This document shows, piece after piece, positions 4,126-61,482 of a DNA stretch of 64,000 nucleotides. This stretch comes from Candidatus Sumerlaeota bacterium (GTDB taxonomy: Bacteria; Sumerlaeota; Sumerlaeia; JADFCW01): the NCBI GenBank assembly GCA_017161705.1, contig JADFCW010000001.1, forward strand, positions 4,521 to 68,520, written 5' to 3'. The notes under the pieces are model-generated. The model was not told the DNA's origin and did no database searches. It worked only from the letters and a program-made list of their open reading frames with translations. The position numbers and the translations under genes are program-made. Numbering within the stretch: the stretch's first letter is position 1; each line of letters opens with the position of its first letter.

Positions 4126-4148
4126 TGGCAGGAGGGCGGCGGGATGGG

Positions 4149-4191: not shown

Positions 4192-4236
4192 ACGCCTGCG
4201 GATGACCACCGGCAACTAATCCGTTTTAATGCCGCA

Positions 4237-4851: not shown

Positions 4852-5114
4852 TTGTGTCACTCCCTCTTGCCGTGATACTGGGCACACCGCCTAGGAATAA
4901 CCGCGCGAGGGCTTTTCCGACGCGCATTCTGCGAGCACTTCTGCTGGCAATTCACACCCGGCCACGGTGCGCGCCAAAGGGGCTGCGTGTCAACAGATTC
5001 CTGTCTTTCGATCGAAGAATTCCGTTCGCAGAATTTTGAGTTTTGGAGTGAAAACCGTGCCGCATCGTCCTTCTTTTGCTCCGCGGCACCGGGAAAATTT
5101 CCAAAACCTTAATC

Positions 5115-13394: not shown

Positions 13395-14065
13395 GCATCA
13401 TCGAGGCCAGAAATCTGGTTAAGGTCTATCACCTCGGCGGCAGCAAAATCAACGCGCTCAACCACGTGGACCTGACCATCGAGGAAGGCGAAATGGTGGC
13501 GGTGACCGGTGCGTCAGGCAGCGGCAAGTCCACGCTCATGAATATTCTGGGCTGCTTGGACCGCCCGGACGAGGGGACGTATATATTAGCGGGCGAGGAT
13601 GTGTCGAGACTTCATCCCGACCGTCTGGCTGCTATCCGCAACCGTCACATTGGTTTCGTCTTTCAAACCTTCAACCTTCTGCCGCGCATGACGGCTCTGG
13701 AGAACGTCGAGCTGCCCTTGCTGTATGCGGGCGTCAGCGAAGCCAAAGACCGGGCCGAGGAGGCGCTTCGGATGATGGGCCTGGCCGACCGCATGAAGCA
13801 CGAACCTAATCAGCTGTCCGGCGGCCAGCGCCAGCGCGTGGCCATCGCGCGTGCCATCGTGACCAATCCGGCCATCATTCTGGCGGACGAGCCGACGGGC
13901 AACCTCGACAGCAAAACGGGCGAGGAGATCATGATGTTGTTCAAGAAACTCAACGCCGAGGGGCGCACTCTGATTATCGTCACGCATGAACCCGACGTCG
14001 CCCGCCATTGCCGGCGGCAGGTGCACATGAAGGACGGTCAAATTGTGGACGGGAAGGGGAACTAG
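13391..14065 (+). CDS. ABC transporter ATP-binding protein (MacB/LolD family)
   Basis: GASGSGKST Walker [15 protein letters not shown] signature, [11 protein letters not shown] Walker B. Confidence 0.9.
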
Positions 14066-14096
14066 CGGAGACGAGCGCGGGAAGATTTGCATTGGA

Positions 14097-14129
14097 TCGG
14101 ACGCGTCAGACGCATCGGACAGGTCGGAC
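14097..14129. repeat. 9-bp-periodic pentamer repeat array D (4 units of TC(G/A)GAC)
   Basis: TCGGACgcgTCAGACgcaTCGGACaggTCGGAC, in the spacer between the MacB ATPase and permease genes. Confidence 0.55.
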
Positions 14130-14179
14130 GGAGAGCCTCGATCATCTTTTGCGATACCTAACTCGCAAGAGGATTAACC

Positions 14180-15388
14180 ATGCTATTTTGGACCACCATT
14201 AAAGTTGCGCTGAAAAGCCTGATGGCCAGCAAGTTGCGCTCGTTCCTTGCCATGCTGGGCATCATTATCGGCGTCGGCGCGGTCATCGCCATGCTAGCTA
14301 TGGGGGCCGGGGCCAAGAAACAAGTTCTGTCCCGCATTTATGCCATGGGCACGGACCTGCTGACCGTGCGGCCGGGCCAGCACGGTTTCCATGGCGTCGT
14401 GACGGGCAGCCAGCAAAACCTGACGCTCGAGGATGCGGAGGAAATCCTGAAAAAAGTTCCGAATGTGGAAGCCGTGGCCCCGGCAGTTCAAGGCAGCGCC
14501 CAGCTGAAGTATTTCAACAAGAATACGCGTTGCAATGTCATCGGCACAGGCGTGACGTATTTCTCCATGCGCAACTTCGAGATCGAGAAAGGCCGCGCAT
14601 TTACCGAAGGCGAGGTGGATCGCATGGCCCGTGTCTGCGTGCTGGGTCCCGTCACGGTCTCGAATCTTTTCGGCAACGACGAGCCCGTCGGCGCGCAGCT
14701 CAAGATCAAAGGAATCAATTTCCAGGTCGTGGGCGTCCTCAAGGCCAAAGGCGATATGGGATTCTACAATCCGGACGACACCGCAATCGTTCCCTACACC
14801 ACTGCCATGAAACAACTGTTCGGTCTCGAATACCTCAATGAAATTCACATTCAGGGGACACGCGGATGCGACCTCAATACCCTTCAGGAAGCCACGTCGA
14901 GCGTGCTTCGCCTCCAGCATCGGCTGCAATTCGGCCAGCCCGACGATTTCTATATCCGCAACCAGGCCCAGTATGTCGAGATGGCCTCGGACATGACGCG
15001 CACGTTCACCATTCTTCTGGGCAGCATCGCCAGCATCTCGCTTCTGGTCGGCGGCATCGGCATTATGAACATCATGCTGGTCACCGTCACGGAGCGGACG
15101 CGCGAGATCGGGGTGCGAAAAGCCATCGGCGCGCGCGACCGCGACATTCTACGGCAGTTCCTCATCGAGGCGATGTTGATGAGCGGTCTGGGCGGGCTGA
15201 TCGGAGTAGGGGTCGGCGTCGGCGCTGCCCGAATGATTGGAAAGATGACCTCGTTTGCGATTTCGGTTGAACTGCCCAGCATAATTATGGCATTATCATT
15301 CGCTGCGGCGGTGGGGATATTTTTCGGGTACTATCCGGCCCGCCGCGCAGCCAAACTCGATCCCATCGAGTCGCTGCGATACGAGTAG
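14180..15388 (+). CDS. ABC transporter permease, FtsX/MacB-permease family
   Basis: MacB_PCD-like periplasmic domain followed by the FtsX 3-TM bundle (TERTREIGVRKAIGA). Confidence 0.85.
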   Translation: MLFWTTIKVALKSLMASKLRSFLAMLGIIIGVGAVIAMLAMGAGAKKQVLSRIYAMGTDLLTVRPGQHGFHGVVTGSQQNLTLEDAEEILKKVPNVEAVAPAVQGSAQLKYFNKNTRCNVIGTGVTYFSMRNFEIEKGRAFTEGEVDRMARVCVLGPVTVSNLFGNDEPVGAQLKIKGINFQVVGVLKAKGDMGFYNPDDTAIVPYTTAMKQLFGLEYLNEIHIQGTRGCDLNTLQEATSSVLRLQHRLQFGQPDDFYIRNQAQYVEMASDMTRTFTILLGSIASISLLVGGIGIMNIMLVTVTERTREIGVRKAIGARDRDILRQFLIEAMLMSGLGGLIGVGVGVGAARMIGKMTSFAISVELPSIIMALSFAAAVGIFFGYYPARRAAKLDPIESLRYE

Positions 15389-17375: not shown

Positions 17376-18671
17376 TTACAGCCGCCACCCTTTGCGGTAG
17401 GTCTTGCGAATAAACTTTTCGGCTTCGGGGGCGTTGACGGCGCGCAGCCGCCGGGCGTCCCACTGAAGTTTTTTCCCTGTTCGATACGCCACCACGCCCA
17501 GCAGCACCGCCTCGGTCAGCGCGCCCGAGTAATCAAAATTACAGGTGGTCGGCTTGCCTGTTTTGCACGCCTCGATCCATTCGGCATGGTGGCCGATCGA
17601 ATCGGGAATGTAAGGAGCGGGCGGCTGATAGCCGGCAAAGTCCTTTTCAGGGAGCAAGACGCGGCGGTTGTAGTCGCATAGGAGCATCCCTTTTTCGCCG
17701 ACAAACAACACGCCGTCGCCCCACTTGGGCAGTTTGCCCTCGGCAAAATGCGGCGGCCGTTTCCCGCCGTCATACCAGGTGAGCGTGACCGGCGGCATCG
17801 AGCCGCGCGCGGGAAACTCATAGCGCACGATCAGCCACTCGGCCGCGCTTTCCGGATGCACAGGCGGCCCCTGAGCCTCGACCGTCAGCGGATGACGCAA
17901 CTCGAGCGCCCAGAACGGCAGGTCCATATAGTGGCACGCCATGTCGCCCAGAGTGCCGCTGCCGAAATCCCACCACCCGCGCCAGTTGGCAGGCAGATAG
18001 CAGGGGTGATAGGGGCGGAAGGGGGCGGGCCCCAGCCAGGCCTCCCAATCGAGGCCCTTGGGAATGGGAGGAGTTTCGGCGGGCCGGTTCATCCTGGATG
18101 CCCACGTCTTGCCGCACCAGACGTGGACTTCGCGCACCGGGCCGATGGCGTTTTTCTGGATGAGCTCGACGGAACGGCGATAGTTTTGTTCCGCGTGGAT
18201 TTGCGTGCCCATCTGCGTGGCCAGGCGATTGCGCGTGGCCATTTCGGCCAGCGCGCGCGCTTCATGCACTGTGTGGGTCAGTGGTTTTTCGCAGTAAGCA
18301 TGCAAGCCGCGCCGCAGTGCCATCATCGTGGCGGGTGCGTGGTTGTGGTCGGGCGTCGAAACCACGACGGCGTCGAGGTCCTTCTGGTCGAAAAGCCGGC
18401 GATAGTCGGTGTAGAATTTCGCCTTGGGGAATTGCTCGCGGGCCTTGACGGCGCGCGTTTCGTCGGCATCGCACAAAGCGACGATGTTCTCCTCCTCGAC
18501 GCCTTTGAGGTTGGCTGCCCCGCGGCCGGAAACTCCAATCACCGCGATGTTGAGTTTTTCGTTGGGCGAAAGGCGACGGCGAGGCGGAATGGTCTGGCAG
18601 GCGGTGCCCAGTGCCGCGGCAGCCAAGGCCGTCTGCCGCAAAAATTCCCGACGGGATGACTTGATCAACAC
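17376..18671 (-). CDS. Gfo/Idh/MocA family oxidoreductase with TAT signal peptide
   Basis: Twin-arginine motif SRREFLRQTALAAAAL. NAD-binding Rossmann fold (LNIAVIGVSGRG). GFO_IDH_MocA C-terminal domain. Confidence 0.85.
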   Translation of the reverse strand: MLIKSSRREFLRQTALAAAALGTACQTIPPRRRLSPNEKLNIAVIGVSGRGAANLKGVEEENIVALCDADETRAVKAREQFPKAKFYTDYRRLFDQKDLDAVVVSTPDHNHAPATMMALRRGLHAYCEKPLTHTVHEARALAEMATRNRLATQMGTQIHAEQNYRRSVELIQKNAIGPVREVHVWCGKTWASRMNRPAETPPIPKGLDWEAWLGPAPFRPYHPCYLPANWRGWWDFGSGTLGDMACHYMDLPFWALELRHPLTVEAQGPPVHPESAAEWLIVRYEFPARGSMPPVTLTWYDGGKRPPHFAEGKLPKWGDGVLFVGEKGMLLCDYNRRVLLPEKDFAGYQPPAPYIPDSIGHHAEWIEACKTGKPTTCNFDYSGALTEAVLLGVVAYRTGKKLQWDARRLRAVNAPEAEKFIRKTYRKGWRL

Positions 18672-18693: not shown

Positions 18694-18726
18694 TGGAATC
18701 CTTCGGATCCGGCCGATCCGTTGGAT
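18694..18726. repeat. 9-bp-periodic pentamer repeat array F (4 units)
   Basis: TGGAAtcctTCGGATccgGCCGATccgTTGGATcag, between the MocA start and the phosphoesterase stop. Confidence 0.45.
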
Positions 18727-19985
18727 CAGTTTTGCTCCAGCCAGCGGCGCCACCACGGCGCGCGGCGCACGATCTCGAACTCATGTCTCACTGTGCCGTC
18801 GTCCTCGGTTACAGTTAGTTTCAGCCGGTTGCGCGCCACATCGCCGCGTAGGACCGTATTGGGCGCGCCAATGACGATAGGATAGTTCCATTTTCCCTTT
18901 TCCGGCCGGTGAACCGACAGACGGTGCGTATGGGCGGAGATCATCAGGTCAATCCCGGCTCGATTGAACAGGGGGGCCCAATGGTCGCGGATATACTCGC
19001 GCCCGTAGCTTTGCGCCCTGTCTTTTTCGATCACATGGAACGGCATGTGGATGAGAAGCACTCGGAAAGCGGCGTGGCGGAACGCTCGGCTTTGGATTTC
19101 CGATTTCAGCCACTCCGTTTGTTCGGCACGATAGCGGTCGAAGTCCACGAGGCCGCTGTACTCGGGGCTGGTGTCGGGTTTGTCCTCGCCGCTGTCCAGC
19201 ACAAGGAAGCGCACATTGCCGTGGGTGAAGGCATAGTAGTAGCGGCCGGTCGGGGTGGGAAAGTAATCCATGAGTTTGCGCGCCAGCATACCGCGCGCTT
19301 CGTGGTTGCCGCGAACGTAGACGAAGGGGATGCTTTTAGCAAACGATTCGACACACGGAGCGATAATTGCGTTGAACGCCTGCGGTTCGCTTTCGAAATA
19401 GTTCAGCATGTCGCCGTTGAGCACGACGAGGTCCACACCGTCCCAGCGGATGTTTTTGAGAGCGGCGCGCAGCGGTGCAGCCTTCTCATGGCGGTCATTG
19501 AGAGCGACAAAGGAAAATGCGCCTTTTTGGGAATTCAACGTTGTAAAGGAATACTCCCCGCTGCGCACTTCCGCACCAAAGGTTACCGAGTATGGCTTAT
19601 ACTCGCGGATCTCCTGCGAGACGAGGCGATAGCGATAGGTCGTGCCCGGCGTCAGGCCTTCGAGGCGAACCGCATGGAGATGGCCGATGTCGCGCAGGCC
19701 GTGAGAGGCGCTGAATGCGTGCGACCACGACTCCGTTTCGCCGACGCGATACTCGACCTCCGACACGCAGGGCAGGTTAGTGCGCCAGACGATCGCGACC
19801 GAAGTCTCCGACGGCGCTTGCAGCCAGGGGCCGTCGGCAATCCGAAGCGGTTCCACGGCGCTGGCTGCTGGCGGAGCGGTTGCCTTGCCGGAGGGCGATG
19901 CGTTGCTCCCCGCCTCTGCCATCGCCGCCGAACCAATCAGAACGAAGCTCAGGATTGCGGTCAAAAACTTTTTGGTGCCAGACAT
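18726..19985 (-). CDS. Secreted metallophosphoesterase, purple-acid-phosphatase-like
   Basis: Signal peptide, FN3-like N-domain, and calcineurin-like metal-ligand motifs (GDMLNY, GNHE, ISAHTHR). Confidence 0.8.
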   Translation of the reverse strand: MSGTKKFLTAILSFVLIGSAAMAEAGSNASPSGKATAPPAASAVEPLRIADGPWLQAPSETSVAIVWRTNLPCVSEVEYRVGETESWSHAFSASHGLRDIGHLHAVRLEGLTPGTTYRYRLVSQEIREYKPYSVTFGAEVRSGEYSFTTLNSQKGAFSFVALNDRHEKAAPLRAALKNIRWDGVDLVVLNGDMLNYFESEPQAFNAIIAPCVESFAKSIPFVYVRGNHEARGMLARKLMDYFPTPTGRYYYAFTHGNVRFLVLDSGEDKPDTSPEYSGLVDFDRYRAEQTEWLKSEIQSRAFRHAAFRVLLIHMPFHVIEKDRAQSYGREYIRDHWAPLFNRAGIDLMISAHTHRLSVHRPEKGKWNYPIVIGAPNTVLRGDVARNRLKLTVTEDDGTVRHEFEIVRRAPWWRRWLEQN

Positions 19986-37291: not shown

Positions 37292-37416
37292 AACTATTAC
37301 CCGAAAAAAGCGTCAAACAAAGTCCCTTCACACGAAATGACGTAATTCCCTTCTGTTATTACAAAGGGCGTGTCAAGCATATTTGCATGAAAGGGAAAGG
37401 ATTTTTTTGGAGGGAT

Positions 37417-37457
37417 TAGACGGGATAGATAAAGTGGACGGGGTGGATGCGATGGAC
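37417..37457. repeat. 9-bp-periodic pentamer repeat array B (5 units)
   Basis: TAGACgggaTAGATaaagTGGACggggTGGATgcgaTGGACgaaaac, with strict 9-bp spacing. Confidence 0.55.
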
Positions 37458-37533
37458 GAAAACAAAAGACCGAAGTGCAGCCTTTCGCTGCACTTCGGTC
37501 TTGACCCGGATAGCGAGTGCTATGCGCTTCCGC

Positions 37534-39300
37534 CTACGGGGCGACCGGCTGCGGTACCTGCATCGGCTGCATCACGACATCGCGAATCTTGACGATCGGG
37601 TCCGTCGGCACAAACAGCGTGGCCTGCAGTTTCCCCTGCGAGGAGCCGGCAAAAAAGGTGATCGGTTCGGTTTCGAGGGTTTTCAATTTGGTGGCAATCT
37701 GCGCGAACTGCGGGCCGGCGCCTTGACCCGGAGGCGCAAACGCCTGGACAAGCTGCATCCCCCACGCACCAAGCCGGGCTGGGAACAGGTCCACATAGAG
37801 CATGCCGCCGGCCTGCGCCTGGCTGTGAAGAGGCGTGGAAACGGCTGGCTTCTTCGCCTTCAAAGCATCAATGAGCGAGTCCATGCGTTTGGCATTCAGG
37901 TCGTGAATGACAAAGTTGTCTACAGCGGCGATTTCCTGTTCCTGAAAGGTGAACATCTTCATCATGGCGGCGCCGGGTCCCGGCATGGCTTCCATGCCTG
38001 CCATGTTGACGCTCGTGGTCATTTTGTGGATGGGTGTGCCCTTATACTCGCGAACCTTGTCCTGGAACGTGATGGACATGTCCACGCCCATGCTTTTGTA
38101 AAGGGCGGTTAGGCCGAGGTCATCCATGGTTTTTTTGACGGTGCGCAGTTCTTTCAGATAGTCGCCGGCATTGGTTGTCTCATAGATGACCGCGCCGTTG
38201 AGGAGATTGTCGGCGCCTGGGGTGAGGAAATCAAGGGCTGCGGATTTTTTCATCGCCGTTGTGCGGCGGACAAATTGAGCCAGCTGGTCGGTCTTCAGCT
38301 GCGCGCTGGCGGTGGTCTTCGGCGCGGCAGCCATGACTTCATTGACTTTCGCCGCAATGAAATCAGCCCATGCCGCGCTGTCAAAACCGGCAAAGCCGAC
38401 GACCGACCCCGTGCGGGGCAGATAATTCAGCAGTGACGGATCGGAGGCGGCTGGGGAATCGAGCACCTTGGCCAGAGCCGTGTTGGGTTTCGCGCGGAGA
38501 ATCATGCCAAGCTCCGCGCCTTCTTTTTTGAGGGAAAGGTCCACACCGAGGTCTTTCATTTCTTTGATAATCCCGAGAGCGGTCTGCAGCTGCAGGCTCA
38601 ACAGTGCGGTTCCGGCGCCTGGCTGGCCCATCATTTTCTGCATTTGCTCCATGTTGCGCATCATTTCGGCCAACCCGCTCTCGATGGTCTTTTCATAACG
38701 CGCCATCAGGAGTTCGACGTTGACATAGACACTGACGTCGGAGGGAACAGGCTGGGCAAGGATGGCTTCGAGTTTGTCGAAATTGGCACGCCCCGCCGTC
38801 ATCCCCTTCTCGTTGTTGACATCGGCAACCAGGAGCGTCTTGCCTCCTTCTTTTTGATAAACGAGGCTGCCGCGCGCTTCGAGCGTGGTTTTCAGCTGGG
38901 CGGAGGCCACCGGCAACAGGGCAACGGTCGGCATTTCGCCGCCCCCTTCAGGCGCAAAAACGCAGATCATGGCCGCGCGCGTCTGGTCCACTCCCGCCAG
39001 AGTCGGGTCGCCCAGCGCGTTGCCGAGCTGCATCTTCAGCATTTCGACCCCCATGCCGGGAAGAATCGGGGCGATCATTGCATCAAGGCGCGGAAACAAC
39101 TGATCCAGCCGGTTGATCCGCACCGTGAGGGCGACGTCGGGCACGCCAGCGATAGACTGCGGGTCGCGGATCGAAAGCGCCATCGGGGCTGCGGAAACCT
39201 TAGCGGGCTGCGCGGCGCCGATTGCCGCCGCGACCACGCCTGCCGCCGCTGCCGCCAGAATCCATGCTGCGAACCGTGTTGTTCTTAGTAAACTGTACAT
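37534..39300 (-). CDS. Secreted hypothetical protein (~590 aa)
   Basis: Signal peptide (AAWILAAAAAGVVAAAIGA). Met/Gln-rich protein with no recognisable domain. Confidence 0.5.
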   Translation of the reverse strand: MYSLLRTTRFAAWILAAAAAGVVAAAIGAAQPAKVSAAPMALSIRDPQSIAGVPDVALTVRINRLDQLFPRLDAMIAPILPGMGVEMLKMQLGNALGDPTLAGVDQTRAAMICVFAPEGGGEMPTVALLPVASAQLKTTLEARGSLVYQKEGGKTLLVADVNNEKGMTAGRANFDKLEAILAQPVPSDVSVYVNVELLMARYEKTIESGLAEMMRNMEQMQKMMGQPGAGTALLSLQLQTALGIIKEMKDLGVDLSLKKEGAELGMILRAKPNTALAKVLDSPAASDPSLLNYLPRTGSVVGFAGFDSAAWADFIAAKVNEVMAAAPKTTASAQLKTDQLAQFVRRTTAMKKSAALDFLTPGADNLLNGAVIYETTNAGDYLKELRTVKKTMDDLGLTALYKSMGVDMSITFQDKVREYKGTPIHKMTTSVNMAGMEAMPGPGAAMMKMFTFQEQEIAAVDNFVIHDLNAKRMDSLIDALKAKKPAVSTPLHSQAQAGGMLYVDLFPARLGAWGMQLVQAFAPPGQGAGPQFAQIATKLKTLETEPITFFAGSSQGKLQATLFVPTDPIVKIRDVVMQPMQVPQPVAP

Positions 39301-39546
39301 ACCTTGCCTCCTTCTGATGCTTCGCTTCATCTGAGCTGGGGACTCGCACGCAGGGCGTGGAAGCGCATTCCCCCTTTGTCTGATCGAGTCAGCCGTTGGA
39401 GCACGCGACCGGTTCTACCCTTCTATGCGGCAGAGATTATCGCAGGCGAACTGGTTGAGCGGAAGGCCGCAAAAGACCTCTCACAGACAACAGAACCGTA
39501 GTCGAACGATAAAGAGGCGGTCAACTCTTTTTCTGATTTTTATTTG

Positions 39547-50547: not shown

Positions 50548-50904
50548 ATGGCCAAAGGCAAAACCACCGCCAGTCGAACCATTCGCGTCGAGAATCCCCT
50601 CGGCCTGCATGCCCGTCCGTGCAGCCTGCTGGTTCAGACTGCCAGCCATTTTCCCGACACGGAGGTCTGGGTAACCAACGGCCGCCAGCGGGTGAATGGC
50701 AAAAGCATCATGGGGGTTTTAGGCCTGGCGGCTGCCGCGGGCACGGAACTGCTCATCGAGACCAAGGGGCGCAATGCCGAACAGGCGCTCGAAGCCATCT
50801 GCCGCGTGATCGCCGCGCTGGAAACGTTCGAGCAATATCAGACGCGCGAGGAAACGCTGGATGCATGGCGCAAGCTGCTTGCCGAAGTCACATCCAGGGA
50901 GTAG
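50548..50904 (+). CDS. ptsH: Phosphocarrier protein HPr with ~30-aa C-terminal extension
   Basis: Active-site His15 context NPLGLHARP and a regulatory Ser46-like context (VNGKSIMGVLGL). 118 aa versus the usual ~88. Confidence 0.85.
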   Translation: MAKGKTTASRTIRVENPLGLHARPCSLLVQTASHFPDTEVWVTNGRQRVNGKSIMGVLGLAAAAGTELLIETKGRNAEQALEAICRVIAALETFEQYQTREETLDAWRKLLAEVTSRE

Positions 50905-50911
50905 GGTCTTT

Positions 50912-52774
50912 ATGCCGTCCGCCGTACGCTCCGCTTCGTCCTCGCGCCAGATCGTGCTGAAGGGTATCCCGGCCTCGCCGGGGATCGCGATTGGGCGCGC
51001 GTATGTGTTCGACCCGCGCCAGCCGGCGGTAGCCGCGCTGGAGATTGCCGAGCGAAATGTCGAGCGCGAGGTCGAGCGGTTTCTCAAGGCGATCGAACGG
51101 ACGCGGCGGCAGATTCAGAAACTCCGCCAGCAGGTGGCGCGCCAGATCAACGAGCGGCAGGCGGCCATTTTCGACACTCACCTGATGATGCTGGATGATC
51201 CTTCGTTTCAGGAGGAAACCGTCCGGCGGATTCGCGCCGAGCGACTGAACGCCGAATATCTGCTTCAGTCGCAGGTGCAGAAGCAGGCTTCGCGTTTCGA
51301 GAAAATCCAGGACGAGATGTTTGCCGCCCGCGCCGCTGATCTGACGGATGTGGCTCAGCGCGTGCTCGCCAACCTCATGACGCACGAGCGTCCCGCCCTG
51401 TCCGCGTTGACCAAGCCGGCCATTGTTGTCGCACGCGACCTGGGGCCTTCCGACACCGCGCAGATGAACAAGGAGACCGTCATCGGATTTGCGACCGACC
51501 GCGGGGGGCCCACCTCGCACACGGCCATCATGGCCAAGGCTTTGGAAATTCCTGCTGTCGTCGCTACGGGCGAACTGACGCAACATGTCCGGTCGGGCGA
51601 TTTGCTGATTCTCGACGGCGTCAACGGCTACGTCATTCTGCGCCCAACGCACGACACACTGCGGGACTATGAAAAGTCGCAGGCGGCGATCGAGAAGTTC
51701 GAGCAGGAACTGGCAAAGAATCGCCACCTGCCGGTGGAAACGCTCGACGGCCACGCGGTTGAAGTCGGGGCCAACATCGAATTGCCGGAGGAGGTTCCGC
51801 ACGTCATCGAGCACGGCGCCCAGAGCGTCGGGTTGTTTCGGACGGAGTTTCTGTTTCTGAACCGCGACCGTCTGCCGCGCGAGGACGAACTGTTCGAGAT
51901 GTATCGGTCGGTGATAGCGGCACTGCATCCCCGCACGGTGATCTTCCGCACGCTGGACCTGGGGGGCGACAAGTTCGCCAAGACGGTTCCCCTGTCGAAA
52001 GAGCTGAATCCCTTTTTGGGGCTGCGCGCCATTCGCCTGTGTCTGCATTATCCGGAATTATTTCGGCGGCAGTTGCGGGCCATCTTTCGCGCCAGCATCT
52101 ATGGCCACATCAAGATCATGTTCCCCATGGTTTCGAGTCTCGAAGAAGTGAGAGCCGCGAAAACCATTTGCGAGGAAATCCAGCGCGAGCTTCGCCAACA
52201 TCGCATTGCATATGATCGCGACATCGAGATCGGCATCATGATAGAAACGCCGTCGGCGGCTGTGGCGGCCGATCTGCTGGCCCGAGAGGTGGACTTTTTT
52301 TCGATTGGCACGAACGACTTGATCCAATACACGCTGGCCGTGGACCGCGTCAACGAAACCGTTGCCCATCTCTATGAACCGCTTCATCCGTCGGTCTTGC
52401 GCCTGATTCATAATGTGATCGAGTCGGGGCACAAACAGGGCATTTGGGTGGGCGTCTGCGGCGAGTTGGCCGGCGATCCCACGATGGCCGCGATTTTGGT
52501 GGGCATGGGCATTGATGAATTGAGCATGGGCCCGGTGCGCATTCCCGAAATCAAGCAGGTGATTCGCGGCCTGCGGCTGAGCGATGTCCAGGCGATGGCG
52601 CGCGACTTGCTGAAACAAGCCTCCGCCCGGGAGGTCCGCGAAGTCGTGCGCCGCTATACCGAGCGGCTGCCGATTCGCCCCAAATGGCCGACACCGCCGC
52701 TGTTGAAACCGATTCGTGCGAGGGGAAGCGCGGCGGGCATTGTCCGCCGCCTGGGCGAACCGGTAGAGGTGTGA
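50912..52774 (+). CDS. ptsI: Phosphoenolpyruvate-protein phosphotransferase (PTS Enzyme I)
   Basis: GGPTSHTAIMAKALEIPAVV (phospho-His site), PEP-utilising TIM barrel (RTLDLGGDK, IGTNDLIQYT). Confidence 0.95.
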   Translation: MPSAVRSASSSRQIVLKGIPASPGIAIGRAYVFDPRQPAVAALEIAERNVEREVERFLKAIERTRRQIQKLRQQVARQINERQAAIFDTHLMMLDDPSFQEETVRRIRAERLNAEYLLQSQVQKQASRFEKIQDEMFAARAADLTDVAQRVLANLMTHERPALSALTKPAIVVARDLGPSDTAQMNKETVIGFATDRGGPTSHTAIMAKALEIPAVVATGELTQHVRSGDLLILDGVNGYVILRPTHDTLRDYEKSQAAIEKFEQELAKNRHLPVETLDGHAVEVGANIELPEEVPHVIEHGAQSVGLFRTEFLFLNRDRLPREDELFEMYRSVIAALHPRTVIFRTLDLGGDKFAKTVPLSKELNPFLGLRAIRLCLHYPELFRRQLRAIFRASIYGHIKIMFPMVSSLEEVRAAKTICEEIQRELRQHRIAYDRDIEIGIMIETPSAAVAADLLAREVDFFSIGTNDLIQYTLAVDRVNETVAHLYEPLHPSVLRLIHNVIESGHKQGIWVGVCGELAGDPTMAAILVGMGIDELSMGPVRIPEIKQVIRGLRLSDVQAMARDLLKQASAREVREVVRRYTERLPIRPKWPTPPLLKPIRARGSAAGIVRRLGEPVEV

Positions 52775-52797
52775 GAGGAAAGACCAGATGAAGGGAG

Positions 52798-52846
52798 TGG
52801 AAGAATGAACCGGGTGGACAGCCCGGACAGAATGGACAAGTGGGAC
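52798..52846. repeat. 9-bp-periodic pentamer repeat array C (6 units)
   Basis: TGGAAgaaTGAACcggGTGGACagcccGGACagaaTGGACaagTGGGACgaaaac, in the ptsI-yitJ spacer. Confidence 0.55.
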
Positions 52847-52940
52847 GAAAACGCTGCCGCCCGTCTTGCACACAAACCATTCTATGAACTTCCTGTTGTT
52901 CATGTCGTCCATTTTGTATACTTCGTGCACGGCTTGAGCC

Positions 52941-54803
52941 ATGTCAAATTCCGACGTTCGTCAAAAGCGACTGGGCCGGTTACTCGACCGCCTCGCAGCG
53001 CGTGTGTTGATTTGCGACGGCGCTGTCGGCACCATGCTTTACAACAAGGGCGTCTATATTAACCAGAACTTCGAGGCGCTCAATCTCTCCAAACCTAGCC
53101 TCGTTCAGGAAGTCCATGCGGAATACGTCAAAGCGGGCGCCGACATCATCGAGACCAACACATTTGGCGCTAACCGCCTGAAACTCGAAGCGGCAGGATT
53201 GGCCGACAAAGCCGCCGACATCAATCGCGCGGGCGCGCGCCTGGCACGCGAAGCGGCGGGCGACTGCGCTTTTGTCGCCGGTTCGATCGGCCCGTCGGGC
53301 GAATCGCGCTGGCGAGGCACACCCGTGGACCGAAAACATTTGGGCGCCGTGTTCGGCGAGCAGGCGGCCGCGTTAGCTGAAGGCGGTGTGGACTTGTTTA
53401 TTCTCGAAACGTTTGCCGACCTTGCCGAACTGCTTGCTGCTATCGAAGCCGTGCGCGCCGTAAGCGGTTTGCCCATCATCGCCCAGGCTCGGTTCGCCGA
53501 CGCCGAGCGCACTGATCTTGGCTATACGGTCGAAGAGGTGACAAAGGCGCTCGACCGCGCACCGGCCGAGGTTGTGGGATTCAACTGCGGGATCGGTCCG
53601 GCTACCGCGCTGGAGGTGCTCGAGCGAATGCGCGCGCTGACGACCAAGCCGATTTGCGTTCAGCCCAACGCGGGTCTGCCCCAGGAGTTCGACAACCGTT
53701 CGATCTATCTCAGCACGCCGGAATATATGGCCGTCTATGCAGGGCGGATGATTCAAAAAGGCGCGGCGATAGTCGGCGGTTGCTGCGGAACAACGCCGGC
53801 ACACATTCGCCAGATTCGTGCGCAGGCCAAGGCGCTTCAGCCGGCCTCGACGATACAAGCCGCTTTGTTGGATGAAATGAAAACGGGCGAGGTTGCGCGG
53901 CCCGCACCGGCCGAGACGCAGTCGCGCTTTGCAGCGAAATTGCGCGCCGGCACATTTGTCGTCAGCGTCGAGATGGACCCGCCCATCGGGAGCGATCCGA
54001 CGAAAACGCTGGCCTCGGCCAAAGCCCTGGTGGGAACGCGCGTGGACGCGATCAATATCGCCGACGGCCCGCGCGCCATGGCGCGCATGAGTCCTTTGGC
54101 GCTGGCCCTTCGCGTGCGCGACGAACTCGGCATCGAGCCGATCGTCCATTATTGCTGTCGCGACCGAAACATTCTCGCCATACAGGCCGATCTGCTGGGC
54201 GCCCATTCGCTCGGCATCCACAACATGCTGGCCATCACGGGCGATCCGCCGCGGCTGGGCAACTATCCGGAAGCGGCGGCGGTTTTCGACGTGGATTCGA
54301 TCGGTCTGGTGCGGATCGTGCGGAAGCTGAATGCGGGGATGGATCTGGCGGGAAGCCCGATCGGTCCGCCGACGAAGTTTTTCGTAGGCGTTGGGGCCAA
54401 CCCGGGCGCCATTGACCTGGACAGGGAGATTTTCCGCCTCGAACAAAAAGTCGCCGCCGGCGCGGAATACGTCCTGACGCAGCCGGTGTATGACGTGCGG
54501 CTGTTCGAACAATTCATCCGGCGGACGGCTCACTTGCGCGTGCCGGTGCTGGTGGGGATTCTGCCGCTGGTCAGTTCGCGCAACGCGGAATTTTTGCACA
54601 AGGAAATTCCCGGCATGCAGATTCCCGACCCCATCCGCGAACGCATGCGAAAGGCGGGGTCTGGGCCCGACGCGCGAAAAGAGGGGCTGGCGATTGCGCG
54701 CGAGGCCCTGCGCGAATGCGCGCCGATGGCCCAGGGCGTCTATATCATGCCGCCGTTCAATCGCGCCGACCTTGCACTCGAAGTGCTGGACGTTTTGGGT
54801 TGA
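52941..54803 (+). CDS. yitJ: Bifunctional homocysteine S-methyltransferase / 5,10-methylene-THF reductase (YitJ type)
   Basis: N-terminal Hcy-binding (S-methyl_trans) domain with Zn-ligand Cys (CGIGP, GGCCGTTP). C-terminal MTHFR domain. Confidence 0.85.
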   Translation: MSNSDVRQKRLGRLLDRLAARVLICDGAVGTMLYNKGVYINQNFEALNLSKPSLVQEVHAEYVKAGADIIETNTFGANRLKLEAAGLADKAADINRAGARLAREAAGDCAFVAGSIGPSGESRWRGTPVDRKHLGAVFGEQAAALAEGGVDLFILETFADLAELLAAIEAVRAVSGLPIIAQARFADAERTDLGYTVEEVTKALDRAPAEVVGFNCGIGPATALEVLERMRALTTKPICVQPNAGLPQEFDNRSIYLSTPEYMAVYAGRMIQKGAAIVGGCCGTTPAHIRQIRAQAKALQPASTIQAALLDEMKTGEVARPAPAETQSRFAAKLRAGTFVVSVEMDPPIGSDPTKTLASAKALVGTRVDAINIADGPRAMARMSPLALALRVRDELGIEPIVHYCCRDRNILAIQADLLGAHSLGIHNMLAITGDPPRLGNYPEAAAVFDVDSIGLVRIVRKLNAGMDLAGSPIGPPTKFFVGVGANPGAIDLDREIFRLEQKVAAGAEYVLTQPVYDVRLFEQFIRRTAHLRVPVLVGILPLVSSRNAEFLHKEIPGMQIPDPIRERMRKAGSGPDARKEGLAIAREALRECAPMAQGVYIMPPFNRADLALEVLDVLG

Positions 54804-55189: not shown

Positions 55190-56926
55190 GTGAGCGTTGT
55201 AAGTGGAGAGCAGACGATGGACACGCTATTGGACAGCCAGGTTGAAGATAGGGCAGCGACGGAATCTTCGCAGCAGGCCGATGAGCCGTACGTCGGTCTT
55301 GCGCTCAAGTGGCGGCCGAAGACCTTCGAGGAGATCGTCGGCCAGCGGCAGGTGAGCGAGACGCTGAAGAACGCCATGGCGCAGGGGCGGATTGCGCAAG
55401 CGTATCTTTTCTGCGGACCGCGTGGAGTGGGCAAGACCTCGACCGCCCGGATTCTCGCGCGCGCGATCAATTGCGAGAAAGGCCCGACGCCGGAGCCGTG
55501 CGGCAAGTGCATGTTCTGCCGCGCGATTTCCGCCGGCAGCGACATGGATGTGGTCGAGATTGACGGCGCCTCGAATAACAAGGTGGACGACGTGCGCGAG
55601 CTGCGCGAGGCGGTTAACTTCACGCCGTTCGCCGCCCGCTACAAGGTCTATATCATTGACGAAGTGCACATGCTCTCGACCGGCGCGTTCAACGCTCTTC
55701 TCAAGACGCTGGAAGAGCCGCCCGAGCGCGTGAAGTTTATTTTCGCCACCACCGAGCCGCACCGCGTGCCGGCCACCATCCGGTCGCGCTGCCAGGTTTG
55801 CAATTTCTCCCAGATCACCGAGGCGGACATTGTCGGACGGCTCGAGACCATTCTCGCGCGCGAGCCCTCGATTACCGTCGCCCCCGAGGAAAAGCGCGCC
55901 GTGCTCGAAACCATCGCCCACTATGCCGAAGGCTCGATGCGCGACGCCCTGGTGGCGTTCGATCAAGTGGCCGCGCTGGGATTGGGCACCATCACGCTGA
56001 AGGATGTTCAGGATTTGCTGGGCCTGGTGGACAGCGATGCCTGTCTCGCTCTGCTCGCCGGTCTGTGCACGGGCAGGACGGGCGAGTTGCTGCAGAAGGT
56101 GGATGAGCTGGTGAATGCGGGGCGCGACCTCGAACGCGTGACACGCCAGTTGGTGAAACTGGTGCGCGATGGACTGATCCTCAAAGCCGGAGGCGCGGCC
56201 GACTTAGTGCGGCGTCCTGAGAGCGAGCGGCGGCGCCTGGCGGACATCGTCGCGGGGGTCTCTCTGGCACAAATGGTCAATATCAGCCAGGTGCTGGTCG
56301 CGCTCGAAGAACAAATGCGAAGCGGCGTGCCGGTTCGCTTTGCACTTGAATTGGCCTTTATCAAACTGACCGCTTTAGGCGGAGCGACCGACCTTGGCGA
56401 GTTGATCAAAAAAATCGAGGCGATGAGCCGAGGCGGCGCTGCGGAAACAGCGGGCGGGAGTCCCTTGTCCCGCCCGGCAGCGGCTCCCGCGACACCGCCG
56501 GCGATGCGGGTGGCAGAGCACCCGACCCCCGCGCCGGCGCGGGCGGCCGTGCTGGCGGAAAGGTCGGGAGCATCCGTTGCCCCGCCGCGTGTCGTGCCCT
56601 CTGCCGTCCACATTCCGCCGACGCCCGCTGCAACGGTCCACGCCGACAAAACGTTGGATGGGAACGGCGGGAGCGCGGCGGCGGGCTCGATGCGCGTGGG
56701 CGAATCGGTCGCCGAGTTCGAGACCGACGCGGTGCTATCCAACGGAATCGGACTGGACGACGAGCCCGGTGCGTCCAACGGCAGAGCGGGTCTGGGGGCG
56801 CCGGCCGACCCGCGCGCGTGGCTGCGCGAGGCGTTCAGCCGCGATCCGTCATTGGCGGAGGCAGTCGAGGCGATCAAACAAATGTTTTCGGCGCGCGAAG
56901 TCGCGCTGGATGGAATTCCGTTGTAA
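55190..56926 (+). CDS. dnaX: DNA polymerase III subunit gamma/tau
   Basis: AAA+ clamp-loader motifs (GPRGVGKTSTARILA, zinc module CGKCMFC, DEVHML, SRC). The track start is GTG; the first ATG lies 27 nt downstream. Ala/Pro-rich tau linker. Confidence 0.9.
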   Translation: MSVVSGEQTMDTLLDSQVEDRAATESSQQADEPYVGLALKWRPKTFEEIVGQRQVSETLKNAMAQGRIAQAYLFCGPRGVGKTSTARILARAINCEKGPTPEPCGKCMFCRAISAGSDMDVVEIDGASNNKVDDVRELREAVNFTPFAARYKVYIIDEVHMLSTGAFNALLKTLEEPPERVKFIFATTEPHRVPATIRSRCQVCNFSQITEADIVGRLETILAREPSITVAPEEKRAVLETIAHYAEGSMRDALVAFDQVAALGLGTITLKDVQDLLGLVDSDACLALLAGLCTGRTGELLQKVDELVNAGRDLERVTRQLVKLVRDGLILKAGGAADLVRRPESERRRLADIVAGVSLAQMVNISQVLVALEEQMRSGVPVRFALELAFIKLTALGGATDLGELIKKIEAMSRGGAAETAGGSPLSRPAAAPATPPAMRVAEHPTPAPARAAVLAERSGASVAPPRVVPSAVHIPPTPAATVHADKTLDGNGGSAAAGSMRVGESVAEFETDAVLSNGIGLDDEPGASNGRAGLGAPADPRAWLREAFSRDPSLAEAVEAIKQMFSAREVALDGIPL

Positions 56927-58752: not shown

Positions 58753-60150
58753 TCAGCCGCCTTTGGTCCGCGGTTTGTCTATTCCGTATTCTTCCATTTT
58801 TCGATAAAGGGTCTTGCGGCTCAAGCCAAGGAGGCGGGCCGTTCTGGCGCGATTGTCGCCGGTTTGCTGCAGCGTGGCCAGAATGATCTCGCGCTGGGCG
58901 TCGTCGAGGCTGGTGCCGATGCGCAGGCGGATTTCCGGCGCCGGGGCATTTAGAGCCGCCGAGGGAGAAGCCGCCCGCACGTCGGCCGGCAGATGCTCCG
59001 GGCCGATCTCGGTCTCCGAGGGTCCGGCCATGATCACCGCTCCCTCGATGGCGTTGCGCAGCTGGCGCACATTTCCCGGCCAGGGATAATTCTGCAGGAT
59101 CGCCATGGCCGCCGGGTGGATTCGGACAAGGTTCTTGCCGTTGGCCTGGGAGAATTCGGCCAGAAAGGCTTGGGCGAGCAGAGGAATATCCTCGCGGCGC
59201 TCGCGCAGGGGCGGCAATACAATGCTGATCACTTTCAAGCGGTAGTAGAGGTCGGAGCGGAACGAGCCGGCGGCAACCATTTGTTCGAGGTCGCGGTTGC
59301 TGGCGGCGATAATGCGCACATCCGAGTGGATGATCTCGGTTCCGCCGACGCGCTCGAAGCGCCCGGTTTCGATGACGCGGAGAAGTTTGACCTGAAATTC
59401 GAGAGAGGTTTCGCTGATCTCGTCGAGAAACAGTGTTCCGCCATCGGCCAGCTCGAACCGCCCCGGTTTCTGTTTCACCGCCGAGGTGAACGCGCCGCGT
59501 TCATGGCCGAACAATTCGCTTTCGAGCAAGGTGGGGGCCAGCGCGCCGCAATTGACGGGGACAAACGGTCCCCGGCCCACGCGGTCGGAATGTTGGTGAA
59601 TGGCCCGCGCGATCAACTCCTTACCCGTTCCGCTTTCGCCCGTCAGAAGAACGGTCGCCCGTGTCGGGGCGACCTGGCGGACCTGCTGAAAAATCCGTTG
59701 CATGGCCGGCGACTGGCCGATGATGCTCTCGAAACCATAGCGGGCGCTCAGGGCCTGCCGCAGAGCGAGGTTCTCTTCGCGCAGACTCTTTTCCGTCAGC
59801 ACGCGGTCCACAAGGGCCGACAGTTCGTCAATGTCTATGGGCTTGGTCAGGTAGTCATAGGCGCCCTGTTTGAGCGCATCGCGCGCACTGGCGATGGTGC
59901 CGTGGCCCGTGAGGATCACGACTTCGGTGCCGGGCGATTCCTGTTTGACGCGCTTGAGAAGTTCCAGCCCGTCGAGACGGGGCATTTTCAGATCGGCGAG
60001 CACCAGATCAATGGGTTCGGCGCGAGTGATCTGAAGCGCTTCCTCGCCGTCAGCCGCCATACGAATGTCCAACGACCGGTTCTGCAGGGCCAGCCGCAGG
60101 CCCTCGCGCGTGTTTTTTTCATCGTCCACAATCAAGATTCGCCGTCGCAC
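58753..60150 (-). CDS. Sigma-54-dependent response regulator (NtrC family)
   Basis: REC domain (phospho-Asp in LVLADLKMP). Sigma-54 AAA+ domain with GESGTGKE and GAFTSA motifs. C-terminal Fis-type HTH. Confidence 0.9.
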   Translation of the reverse strand: MRRRILIVDDEKNTREGLRLALQNRSLDIRMAADGEEALQITRAEPIDLVLADLKMPRLDGLELLKRVKQESPGTEVVILTGHGTIASARDALKQGAYDYLTKPIDIDELSALVDRVLTEKSLREENLALRQALSARYGFESIIGQSPAMQRIFQQVRQVAPTRATVLLTGESGTGKELIARAIHQHSDRVGRGPFVPVNCGALAPTLLESELFGHERGAFTSAVKQKPGRFELADGGTLFLDEISETSLEFQVKLLRVIETGRFERVGGTEIIHSDVRIIAASNRDLEQMVAAGSFRSDLYYRLKVISIVLPPLRERREDIPLLAQAFLAEFSQANGKNLVRIHPAAMAILQNYPWPGNVRQLRNAIEGAVIMAGPSETEIGPEHLPADVRAASPSAALNAPAPEIRLRIGTSLDDAQREIILATLQQTGDNRARTARLLGLSRKTLYRKMEEYGIDKPRTKGG

Positions 60151-60182
60151 GGCAGAACCCCTTTGCTTTTGAGGGAATTTGT

Positions 60183-60214
60183 CGGGCGCGTCGGACGTAC
60201 CGGACGGGTCCGAC
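60183..60214. repeat. 9-bp-periodic pentamer repeat array E (4 units)
   Basis: CGGGCgcgTCGGACgtaCCGGACgggTCCGAC, in the HK-RR spacer. Confidence 0.5.
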
Positions 60215-60237: not shown

Positions 60238-61482
60238 TTACGCTTTGGGCAATAAGCGCACCGGCCGCTGGCTCAGCGGCAACCGCATGCGCACGCGCGT
60301 TCCTCGCCCGACCTCGCTTTCGATTTCCACTTTGCCGTCATGTTCGCGCAGGATTCGATAGACATTCATCAGGCCCAGACCTGTTCCCGAGAACTTTGTG
60401 GTATAATAGGGCTCGAACACCTTGCCCAGGTTCTCCTGAGCAATCCCGCAACCCGTGTCCACGACCTCGATCAATGCATCGTCGCCGTCTATGCGGCAGG
60501 TGACCGCGATGGAGTCCTTTTTTGCCGGTTCTGTTCCGTCTCCGGCTTTGCGCTTCTCCAGAATGGCCTCGATGGCGTTGCGAATCACATTGACGAGGGC
60601 GCGCTCGATTTGGTCGCTGTCCAGAAGGATCGGCGGCAAGTCGGCATCGCAAACGACCTCGAGAGCGATGTCGGCCTGCCGGCATTCGGGGAGGAACATC
60701 CTAGCAACTTTTTCCACCAATTCGCGCAACGCCACTTCTGCTTTTTCCGGGTCGGTGGGCCGCACGGCGCCGAGAAACTCATCCACGATCCGTGTCATCC
60801 GACGCGTTTCTTCGAGAATCACCCGCAGCGAGGCTTCGAGCCGGTCCAGTTCGACGGTCTGGCCGCCATTGCGGACGCCGGCGATCATCCGATTGGTCAG
60901 CTGGGCATGGATTTGAAGCGAGTTCAGCGGGTTCTTCAATTCATGGGCGATGCCGGCGGTCAACGTGGCCAGCGAAGCGATGCGTTCGGCCTGGCGCTCG
61001 CGCAGTTCCGCGCGGCGGGTTTCCGTCACATCGCGCAGGACAAACACCCGCGAGAACAGCGAGCCGTCCTGACTCTCGACCGGATAGCTGGTCAGCTGCA
61101 GCGTGATGCCCGCAAAACAGGCCGGCCGGAAATCCTGTTCGACCCGCTGGGGTTTGGAAAAATCTGTTCTGGCGACAAATTGAAAGATTTCCGGCACCGA
61201 AATATGCGCGAGAAGCGACTCGCCGGTCATGCGACGCCGCGGGGGAATACCCAGCCAGCGTCGCGCCCGCGCATTGCAGGTCAGAATCCGCAGCTGCGAA
61301 TCGGTGACGACCAGGCCTTCCTGCAAATTCTCGAAAATGACCTCGAGCAATTGCTTTTGGGCGAGGTACTGCTGGAGGGCCGCTTCGATCAGGCGCGGGT
61401 CGGCCCGCCCGATACGTTCGAGCACGCGGCCGGCAAATCCGCTTTGTTTTTTGGTTTCCGGCGACATAAAATTCATTCCCAC
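60238..61482 (-). CDS. Cytoplasmic PAS-domain sensor histidine kinase
   Basis: PAS fold, HisKA H-box (GIAHELKNPL), HATPase_c N/G boxes (NAIEA, DTGCGI, GTGLGL). No TM segments. Confidence 0.85.
   Translation of the reverse strand: MGMNFMSPETKKQSGFAGRVLERIGRADPRLIEAALQQYLAQKQLLEVIFENLQEGLVVTDSQLRILTCNARARRWLGIPPRRRMTGESLLAHISVPEIFQFVARTDFSKPQRVEQDFRPACFAGITLQLTSYPVESQDGSLFSRVFVLRDVTETRRAELRERQAERIASLATLTAGIAHELKNPLNSLQIHAQLTNRMIAGVRNGGQTVELDRLEASLRVILEETRRMTRIVDEFLGAVRPTDPEKAEVALRELVEKVARMFLPECRQADIALEVVCDADLPPILLDSDQIERALVNVIRNAIEAILEKRKAGDGTEPAKKDSIAVTCRIDGDDALIEVVDTGCGIAQENLGKVFEPYYTTKFSGTGLGLMNVYRILREHDGKVEIESEVGRGTRVRMRLPLSQRPVRLLPKA

Follow-up and report, generated by a model that had tools for sequence, protein, structure and literature searches.

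The 64,000 nucleotides of Candidatus Sumerlaeota DNA analysed here (contig JADFCW010000001.1, positions 4,521 to 68,520; referred to as the window) contain short arrays in which a TGGAC-like core is repeated head-to-tail every 9 bp. One of them, array C, located at 52797-52846 in the spacer between ptsI and a gene for a homocysteine S-methyltransferase/MTHFR fusion protein, is the feature under study; it had been described in an earlier note on this DNA together with five others. The arrays are best read as members of a widespread family of nonamer arrays in intergenic DNA that has not so far been described, with the form (RTGGAC-N3)n and a variant, RTCGGAC-N2. As to their role, the explanation that we favour, with a confidence somewhat short of even, is drawn by analogy: the arrays may be phased DNA sites for the cooperative head-to-tail binding of a putative small protein, as is known for BldC on 9-bp repeats. 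What is new is best called an unusually clean 9-bp code with an unusually wide but patchy phyletic spread, of a kind that is known, namely iterated direct-repeat binding arrays or dispersed intergenic repeats. We found no account of the family in Rfam, among annotated plasmids and phages, or in full-text literature searches covering the motif and 9-bp intergenic repeats in the phyla concerned, an absence that is no proof.

Array C reads GTGGAA, ATGAAC, GTGGAC, CCGGAC, ATGGAC, TGGGAC on the + strand. It is followed at 52899-52931 by a degenerate inverted partner on the - strand (GTTCAT, GTCCAT, GTATAC, GTGCAC at 9 bp), which was absent from the earlier description, and the two form a convergent pair with a 52-bp gap. 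The cores fall into two classes, RTGGAC in arrays A, B and C and RTCGGAC/GTCCGAC in arrays D and E. Array A (4148-4191, + strand) has GTGGAC, ATGGAC, GTGGAC and ATGGAC at 9 bp, then ATGGAC after an 11-bp step. The units of B (37408-37457, + strand; TGGAG, TTAGAC, ATAGAT, GTGGAC, GTGGAT, ATGGAC) and of C are more degenerate than those of A, but are of the RTGGAC type. Array D (14096-14129, + strand) consists of ATCGGAC, GTCAGAC, ATCGGAC and GTCGGAC, and array E (60181-60214) of GTCGGGC, GTCGGAC, ACCGGAC and GTCCGAC at 9 bp, with both orientations in one phase, its last unit being the reverse complement of its second. In array F (18695-18728), GGAAT, GGATC, CGATC and GGATC follow one another at 9 bp and read as GGAT on both strands, leaving the strand unassignable; the GGATC core is an outlier to both classes, and the membership of F in the family is doubtful. 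All six arrays were found at, or a few bases from, the positions first given for them, and each has the 9-bp periodicity that had been claimed.

The 9-bp phasing is strict. We scanned the window for runs of at least three GGAY or (C/A)GAC units at a fixed period, with 200 shuffles as control. At period 9, there were 7 runs in the window compared with 0.54 in the shuffles, and with at least four units 3 runs compared with 0.025, while periods 6-8 and 10-13 gave 0-2 runs each. An identity scan that made no use of the motif returned ten 36-nt segments with at least 66% identity at lag 9 across the 64 kb, compared with 0-2 such segments at lags 7, 8, 10, 11 and 13; A, D, F, E and the reverse partner of C are among the ten best lag-9 segments. 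Tandem Repeats Finder calls A and D, with a best-scoring period of 18 bp. The excess of period 9 over both shuffles and other periods bears out the suggestion of the earlier note that such regularity is unlikely by chance. A weak period-9 GGAC-like match inside a coding region (56001-56032), kept in three relatives (L124 at 4478, L127 at 12728 and L128 at 4301), looks like a codon-level coincidence and not an array.

That all six arrays are intergenic is far from chance, since intergenic DNA makes up at most 17% of the window. The arrays had been placed in spacers between co-oriented genes, and this was confirmed at six of six, with spacers of 54-242 bp; set against the ~55% of the intergenic length that co-oriented spacers occupy in the window, this is suggestive. 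An array usually starts 0-80 nt past the upstream stop codon. Array C itself starts 23 nt past the stop of ptsI, and its reverse arm ends 10 nt ahead of the start of the methyltransferase/MTHFR gene. The density is ~1 array per 10 kb, with 6 of ~40-55 spacers occupied.

To follow the arrays in evolution, we compared the window with a sister genome (GCA_026415575.1), reached via 90% protein clusters. Two of its proteins fall in 90%-identity clusters with their window orthologues and a third has 97% identity; at third codon positions, the identity is 0.665-0.78. The sister genome keeps an array in five of the six orthologous spacers. In array D, it has the same four cores, including the TCAGAC variant, with 24/24 core bases identical and 6/12 in the spacers. 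Array C has six forward units at the orthologous place, and its reverse arm is there a clean array of 6-7 units (GTCTAT, GTCCAT, ATTCAT, GTCCAT, GTCCAT, GTCCAC). Array A has two units (ATGGACGGC ATGGACGTG) instead of five, in a 49-bp spacer; E has three phased units (GTCGGAG, GTCGAAC, GTCCGAC at 9 bp); and B is a degenerate array at the same place (GCCCA, GTTCT, GTCCC, GTCCA). Only the spacer orthologous to that of F, 63 bp long, is not periodic. Unit number differs between the two genomes at A (5 vs 2) and, by one unit, at C and E. The sister genome has further arrays without a counterpart in the window. Its D spacer measures 460 bp (L254, 9541-10000) compared with 114 bp in the window, and holds the array and two hairpin-like sequences that contain GCCCTGAAAGGG.

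Relatives without an array at the C or D site have 68-85% protein identity to the window. None of seven metagenome relatives (72-85% identity) has an array in the C spacer, and there is none in the D spacers of L121, L252 and L253, which are 9, 84 and 19 bp long, respectively. L253 carries a six-unit array at another site. Farther away, two Chlorobi genomes have an array directly past the same rRNA methyltransferase-like gene; their TGGAC bases are identical at 15/15 positions, 5/9 of the other array positions are kept together with little of the remaining spacer, and the unit number has changed. The conservation of cores relative to spacers, measured at one window array (D) and at this Chlorobi pair, shows purifying selection on the cores with free spacers. 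By the same kind of comparison, units are seen to be gained and lost, as by slippage, and whole arrays to be lost or relocated over longer times. The outcome of comparing orthologous spacers, which the earlier note had proposed as a check, is mixed: five of six arrays stand in the sister genome, and the relatives at 68-85% identity have none at C and D. As the sister genome keeps the arrays and more distant relatives do not, the elements are under selection but turn over fast, which does not point to a compositional artefact. Arrays A, B, C and D share nothing beyond their cores when their flanks are compared, and no target-site duplication is seen when the filled D site is compared with the empty site of L121, which argues that the window arrays are not copies of one mobile or master element. 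A miniature inverted-repeat transposable element (MITE) was rejected on these grounds, as A-D show no end-to-end likeness.

The arrays are not confined to Sumerlaeota, and the (RTGGAC-N3)n form is present at more than 60 loci in other genomes. An exact search for four TGGAC-N4 units, in one genome per species, gave at least 120 loci, where ~1 would be roughly expected under uniform base composition. About half of the matches listed are perfect tandem or coding repeats (e.g. collagen-like, in Actinobacteria and Firmicutes), and at 59 of the listed loci the array has three spacers that differ from one another. Going by record titles, 21 of the 59 belong to Planctomycetota, Lentisphaerota, Verrucomicrobiota and Chlamydiota, and another 24 to Hydrogenedentota (5), Desulfobacterota (5), Sumerlaeota (4), Cloacimonadota (4), Chlorobi (3) and Nitrospirota (3); the remainder are from Acidobacteriota (3), Proteobacteria (3), one Clostridia-labelled metagenome-assembled genome (3) and Actinobacteria (1), or are unclassified (4). 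The distribution across phyla is patchy. From the 61 variable-spacer arrays that these other genomes contributed to the matches listed, we derived the unit consensus nnnRTGGAC. The purine at position -1 is found in 94% of units although it lay outside the search pattern. At the three spacer positions any base is allowed, though purines are common and C is scarce on the strand that reads TGGAC, where it makes up only 10-14% at positions -2 and -3. Sixty of the 61 listed arrays have 4-8 units and one has 13. In the masked flanks of the listed loci, GGAC or GTCC was found in 6/30 further period-9 arrays. It is on this census, on the purine that was not searched for and on the motif-free scan at lag 9 that the specificity for TGGAC rests. 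An all-against-all BLAST of the open reading frames (ORFs) of the 59 listed loci, which were not screened against transposase models, found no recurrent neighbour gene family.

Outside bacterial chromosomes, matches to the same pattern in viral contigs are almost all collagen-like coding repeats, and among annotated plasmids and phages the sole match is a perfect ATGGACGCA/GTGGACGCG tandem repeat on the megaplasmid of Ralstonia GMI1000, in unannotated DNA. At this locus (L131, 1500-1640; Ralstonia pseudosolanacearum GMI1000 megaplasmid, 1549273-1549410), ~11 near-perfect AATGGACGC/AATGGACAC units are followed by five copies of GGTGGACGC; core and period are those of the window arrays and the spacers are uniform. 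In a viral contig (L135, 4876-4907; IMGVR_UViG_3300034686_000251), a 32-nt spacer of a clustered regularly interspaced short palindromic repeats (CRISPR) locus, between repeats GTATTCCCCACGCACGTGGGGGTGAACCGA, is the TGGAC nonamer array TGGACTGAATGGACCGGATGGACGGAATGGAC, which indicates that some CRISPR system has sampled such an array. Candidatus Sumerlaeia ACE_SUM1 (L015, 4857-5400) has ~6 tandem copies of a composite unit of ~87 bp, made of a GTCCAC array (4-6 units, with some 7-bp steps) and then three TGGAC at 11-14 bp spacing. In the Lentisphaeria loci L013, L041 and L084, heptamer tandem arrays (CTCGCCG, GTGCGGG, GGGGCGA) stand beside the TGGAC arrays. Arrays lie within larger multi-copy elements with shared flanks at L072, L084, L115, L071/L086 and the Lentisphaerae loci L013/L076/L081; the last three share the conserved flank GGGGTTAAGCATGGTYAAGCRCCTRCGGCGCAA, for which no Rfam family matched.

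Where two arrays are neighbours, they prefer the convergent arrangement seen at C. Among the matches listed, 14 pairs are convergent (a TGGAC array, a short gap of 5-72 bp and a GTCCA array) and one is divergent. The spacer bases of the two arms of the listed pairs are complementary at 50/165 positions, which is about chance, so that the arms are not a single continuous hairpin. The purine of a unit and the pyrimidine of its mirror unit form a Watson-Crick match in 43/55 cases and a G-T match in 8/55 (51/55 pairable), and A faces C once.

The arrays are indifferent to their orientation relative to genes. All clear window arrays carry TGGAC on the + strand; with respect to the genes, this strand is sense at D and C and antisense at A and B. 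The mRNA would contain GUCCA at A and B, GGAC at D, and both at C and E. The strands given in the earlier note stand for D and C (sense) and for A and B (antisense), except that C also has its inverted partner, while the antisense label is without meaning for E, which mixes orientations, and for F, which reads GGAT on both strands. The extra arrays of the sister genome and of L253 are also split in their orientation to genes. At other loci, 7-9 arrays between co-oriented genes are sense and 5-10 antisense, by crude gene calls from two home-made ORF callers that are noisy in GC-rich DNA and support only the statement that there is no strong bias. Nor is there a link between orientation and GC skew as a mark of the replication strand (29/55 arrays elsewhere positive, among the matches listed). 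Since the orientation to genes is mixed both here and in other genomes, we read the arrays as iterated protein-binding boxes acting at the level of DNA, an argument already made from the window arrays and now supported by the sister genome and the other loci.

The core is conserved, asymmetric and 6-7 bp long, the step is always 9 bp, spacers are free and units number 4-8, the direction of transcription makes no difference, and convergent pairs are preferred to divergent ones. This is what would be expected of the sites of a small protein forming head-to-tail polymers along duplex DNA. It is because of these features, and of the precedents set by BldC and by ribbon-helix-helix proteins, that we favour a nucleoprotein filament on DNA. 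That the core is kept while its surroundings drift suggests a binding platform for some repeating factor. We argue that a small protein with sequence specificity would dock onto double-stranded DNA once per 9-bp unit and polymerise head-to-tail along 4-8 phased sites, two filaments meeting head-on at convergent pairs. The resulting nucleoprotein stretch would occupy or distort the short spacer between two transcription units, and could serve as an operator, an insulator or a roadblock for transcription entering or starting in the spacer. We infer a protein as the reader of the motif and duplex DNA as the substrate on which it acts; the fold of this protein may, by analogy, be a BldC/Xis-like winged helix or a ribbon-helix-helix, and its binding would affect transcription.

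The closest precedent is the BldC operator. Each 9-bp direct repeat takes one BldC protomer, in head-to-tail order; sites differ in their number of repeats, a filament is formed on the DNA, and BldC-like small proteins are reported from ~500 species of Gram-positive and Gram-negative bacteria (PMC5859096). The operators of this MerR-like winged-helix protein of Streptomyces are like the present arrays in being exact 9-bp head-to-tail direct repeats, variable in number and directional. They differ in that the BldC unit is AATT-N4-C, with specificity in its AT-rich part, whereas the arrays conserve RTGGAC/RTCGGAC and leave the AAT-equivalent positions free, and in that BldC sites lie in the promoters of a defined regulon, whereas the arrays recur about once per 10 kb. 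A second precedent is given by ribbon-helix-helix proteins, small dimers that bind cooperatively to the omega heptads of pSM19035, the ParG tetramer boxes at 8 bp and the 8-bp metboxes of MetJ. Their short asymmetric head-to-tail units, with a step below the helical turn (7-8 bp, compared with 9 bp here), resemble the arrays; in period and motif they differ, within a plasmid or regulon they are restricted to a single promoter or centromere or to a few, and no protein of this kind is linked to the present arrays. Omega has good affinity for direct and convergent arrangements and little for divergent ones, a preference that matches the 14:1 excess of convergent pairs among the listed pairs. MraZ sites, GTGGG-type repeats at 10 bp upstream of mraZ, were considered and rejected, as period and location differ.

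Several observations weigh against a filament-forming regulator. Divergent promoter regions hold none of the six arrays, all of which are in co-oriented spacers. The array density is high for a specific regulator, and a nucleoid-associated or repetitive extragenic palindrome (REP)-like element fits it better. The two core classes place RT at 0 or 1 nt from GGAC, and one rigid DNA-binding domain would not easily fit both. The spacers are strand-asymmetric, as expected of a single-stranded RNA or DNA target. The match between purines and mirror pyrimidines hints at pairing between the arms, although the two arms share one type and the match may reflect genome composition. Finally, no BldC-like protein was found in the 64-kb window by tblastn, a test that is weak because of its query sequence.

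Some of these observations would be explained if the arrays acted as RNA, which we consider unlikely. The unstructured, C-rich and G-poor GUCCAY strand could load a ring-shaped factor such as Rho, at ~9 nt per subunit, or the GGAC strand could bind an oligomeric RNA-binding protein, as in the targets of TRAP and CsrA, and the convergent pairs would be long interrupted hairpins that terminate or stabilise mRNAs. Transcription would cover arrays in co-oriented spacers, where all six lie, usually within 0-80 nt of the upstream stop codon. Single arrays are predicted to be unpaired (z = +0.83 for A on the - strand; array B, after its terminator, fully open), and the low frequency of C at -2 and -3 gives the spacers the asymmetry of a transcript target. 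Raw minimum free energies predicted for the convergent pairs, without a shuffle control, range from -36 to -129 kcal/mol, and the matching of R with Y avoids A-C and tolerates G-U. The GUCCAY strand has the composition of a Rho utilization (rut) site, C-rich, G-poor and unpaired, and is in the mRNA for only about half of the arrays. Against RNA, the mixed orientation puts no single strand consistently into mRNA. Array B, read on the gene strand, comes after a strong intrinsic terminator. Single arrays, which are the majority, cannot form hairpins, and the inter-arm spacers are not complementary. Rfam 15 has no match in the window at or near its gathering score, and 17 array-bearing loci gave only two unrelated tRNAs; permissive Rfam scans of C and B returned only chance eukaryotic matches. 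Rho needs only YC dinucleotides, which leaves the invariant GUCCA unexplained. TRAP and CsrA recognise (G/U)AG or GGA repeats in leaders and sponge RNAs, TRAP with a spacing of 2-3 nt and CsrA at unphased sites in hairpin loops. Such targets share with the arrays a short conserved core (GGA) and non-conserved spacers, as for a multi-subunit binder, but they act on the transcript strand, whereas the arrays have mixed orientation, a period fixed at 9 and no predicted hairpins. CsrA, moreover, prefers A where 57% of units have G, and it has been reported absent from Chlamydiae and Chlorobi, both of which carry arrays.

The patchy distribution and fast turnover of the arrays, with relatives at 68-85% identity empty at C and D yet carrying arrays elsewhere, could also come from selfish or neutral minisatellites, MITE- or REP-like, that are born by slippage or by a transposase or recombinase recognising the core, have no host function and pile up where insertion is harmless. 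The changes of unit number between sister genomes, the perfect tandem versions in the same phyla and in Ralstonia, the multi-copy elements with shared flanks that contain arrays in some genomes, the likeness of convergent pairs to paired transposon ends and the CRISPR spacer made of a TGGAC array would all fit such an origin. We nevertheless hold it to be improbable. Core conservation is far in excess of the neutral rate while the spacers drift (24/24 vs 6/12 at D, and one Chlorobi pair), the window arrays have no common flanks or target-site duplications, and no transposase or other gene recurs near the arrays of the 59 listed loci, whose ORFs were not screened against transposase models. The hexamer with its -1 purine recurs across unrelated phyla, which slippage alone would not yield. 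REP units are imperfect palindromes of 20-40 bp with a GTAG or CGTC head, tied to REP-associated tyrosine transposases (RAYTs). REP and the bacterial interspersed mosaic elements (BIMEs) resemble the arrays in their high copy number, strictly intergenic and lineage-specific occurrence, frequent location past stop codons between co-oriented genes and quick gain and loss; they occur singly or as inverted pairs, as do the arrays, with six of six intergenic here and 14 convergent pairs among the matches listed in other genomes. The array unit is, however, 9 bp long and non-palindromic, its copies share only the core, and this core recurs across phyla. The STRR repeats of heterocystous cyanobacteria, in which a complete 7-mer is copied in tandem almost perfectly, are likewise short, tandem, intergenic and present in many copies, but are not known to show the pattern of conserved core and free spacer or conservation across phyla; heptamer arrays also adjoin TGGAC arrays in Lentisphaeria. 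The link to DnaA boxes drawn in the earlier note is not supported, and we regard clusters of weak boxes that titrate or position DnaA as very improbable. The units are 9-mers with TCCAC/GTGGA, the centre of TTATCCACA, and E. coli oriC has oppositely oriented arrays of weak boxes. Yet nnnRTGGAC (GTCCAYnnn) shares only TCCAC with the consensus TTATNCACA, a match at 5/9 positions. At position 3 the units always have G and the box needs A/T, and at positions 1, 2 and 9, where the box needs TT and A, any base is allowed. The boxes of oriC are 2 bp apart (period 11), need T/A-rich flanking positions that are free or wrong in the arrays, and are known only from the origin and a few control loci. Boxes with at most one mismatch are not enriched in the window (5 vs 4.1 expected) and none lies inside an array; the D and E cores (TCGGAC) are even further from the box; and ~1 array per 10 kb, flanking genes of ordinary metabolism and transport, and loss in relatives are unlike replication control. 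There is an equally slight chance that the arrays are what is left of coding repeats, or that they encode short repeated peptides such as (M/V)-D-X or X-V-H. RTG can be read as a start codon, a 9-bp period keeps the frame and many uniform-spacer matches in the collection scans are coding repeats, e.g. collagen-like G-P-X. However, the wobble positions are invariant and the third 'codon' is free, with stops at the chance rate (13/208 distinct spacers; 12/61 arrays, among the matches listed), frames differ from array to array, and there is no overlap between the arrays and the conserved parts of their neighbouring genes. On the same chance-level stops in the spacer triplets, leader peptides and small ORFs were rejected.

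Of the 12 flanking ORFs, 11 have a Pfam match, and the twelfth (37534-39330) has none and has a coding-type GC content at third codon positions. Array C lies between ptsI (50861-52774, + strand) and the methyltransferase/MTHFR fusion gene (52941-54803, + strand). Array A is flanked by genes for a bactofilin (4237-4887, - strand) and a GT2 glycosyltransferase (3217-4125, - strand); D by those for an ABC ATPase (13391-14065, + strand) and a MacB-type permease (14180-15388, + strand); F by those for a purple acid phosphatase (18726-19985, - strand) and a TAT-signal GFO/IDH oxidoreductase (17376-18671, - strand); and E by those for a PAS histidine kinase (60238-61482, - strand) and a sigma-54 response regulator (58753-60150, - strand). 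Array B is located between the gene for a 598-aa protein (37534-39330, - strand) and ylxM (ylxM-ffh); on the - gene strand, it follows the terminator hairpin of the former and precedes the ylxM-ffh promoter region.

Some features of the spacers themselves may be added. In our reading of the sequence, the reverse arm of C overlies the sole promoter-like hexamers ahead of the methyltransferase gene, both in the window and in the sister genome. In relatives L124-L128, a promoter-like TTGAAA/TTGCAA-N18-TATGNT lies ~40 nt before the methyltransferase start codon; in the window (52860-52925) and in the sister genome, the reverse array sits where this element lies and the promoter-like hexamers differ. 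The terminator ahead of array B (37466-37502, - strand), which follows gene 37534-39330, is an intrinsic one with a 16-bp stem and a U-tract and is kept in the sister genome (L257); the array begins directly past the U-tract. Just past array D, at 14146-14171, a hairpin is predicted from CTTTTGCGA, a loop and TCGCAAGAG, and its 3' arm overlaps part of the Shine-Dalgarno-like AAGAGGA of the permease gene. A 10-mer, TTTGCATTGG, is common to A and D just upstream of the array (4119-4128 and 14086-14095), and TTTGCATG (37382-37388) is found 20 nt upstream of the first unit of B. At neither A nor D has the sister genome kept the 10-mer, which at B forms part of the conserved block ATGCAAATnTGCTTGACA before ylxM. 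The TTTGCAT upstream of A, B and D resembles the -12 element of a sigma-54 promoter, but there is no GG at the N10 distance and such a promoter was rejected. TTTGCAT was also rejected as a part of the array element, as the sister genome does not keep it at A or D, and at B it belongs to the conserved ylxM promoter-upstream block; it is not enriched in the window either (12 found, 9.8 expected). The RTG in each unit creates false start codons (4033-4875 on the + strand and 3217-4215 on the - strand of the window; L256 at 9032), and the longest window ORF for the GT2 gene reaches into array A, as does the start called for the orthologous gene of the sister genome.

Returning to phased sites for a head-to-tail binder, we would like to put forward a broader proposal, which we regard as possible but doubtful. 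The (RTGGAC-N3)n arrays may be the cis-element of an unrecognised system common to Planctomycetota, Verrucomicrobiota, Lentisphaerota, Chlamydiota, Hydrogenedentota, Sumerlaeota, Cloacimonadota, Chlorobi, Nitrospirota and Desulfobacterota, in which the hundreds of intergenic sites of a genome would present a 9-nt phased code to an oligomerising factor. Reading it, this factor would insulate, terminate or tune neighbouring transcription units where canonical terminators are few. The arrays already matter for annotation, as they produce long spurious ORFs and, with an RTG every 9 bases, false start codons. If they are selfish instead, they would be a new kind of selfish element, with a conserved core and free spacers that recur across phyla, and the mechanism itself would then need to be explained. 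As the motif is simple, strictly phased and easily scanned, its binder could be found by phylogenetic profiling or by DNA pull-down in cultivable carriers such as Chlorobium and Prosthecobacter. If the arrays are binding platforms, they would represent a genome-wide regulatory or architectural layer in phyla whose transcription control, termination and chromatin are almost unstudied.

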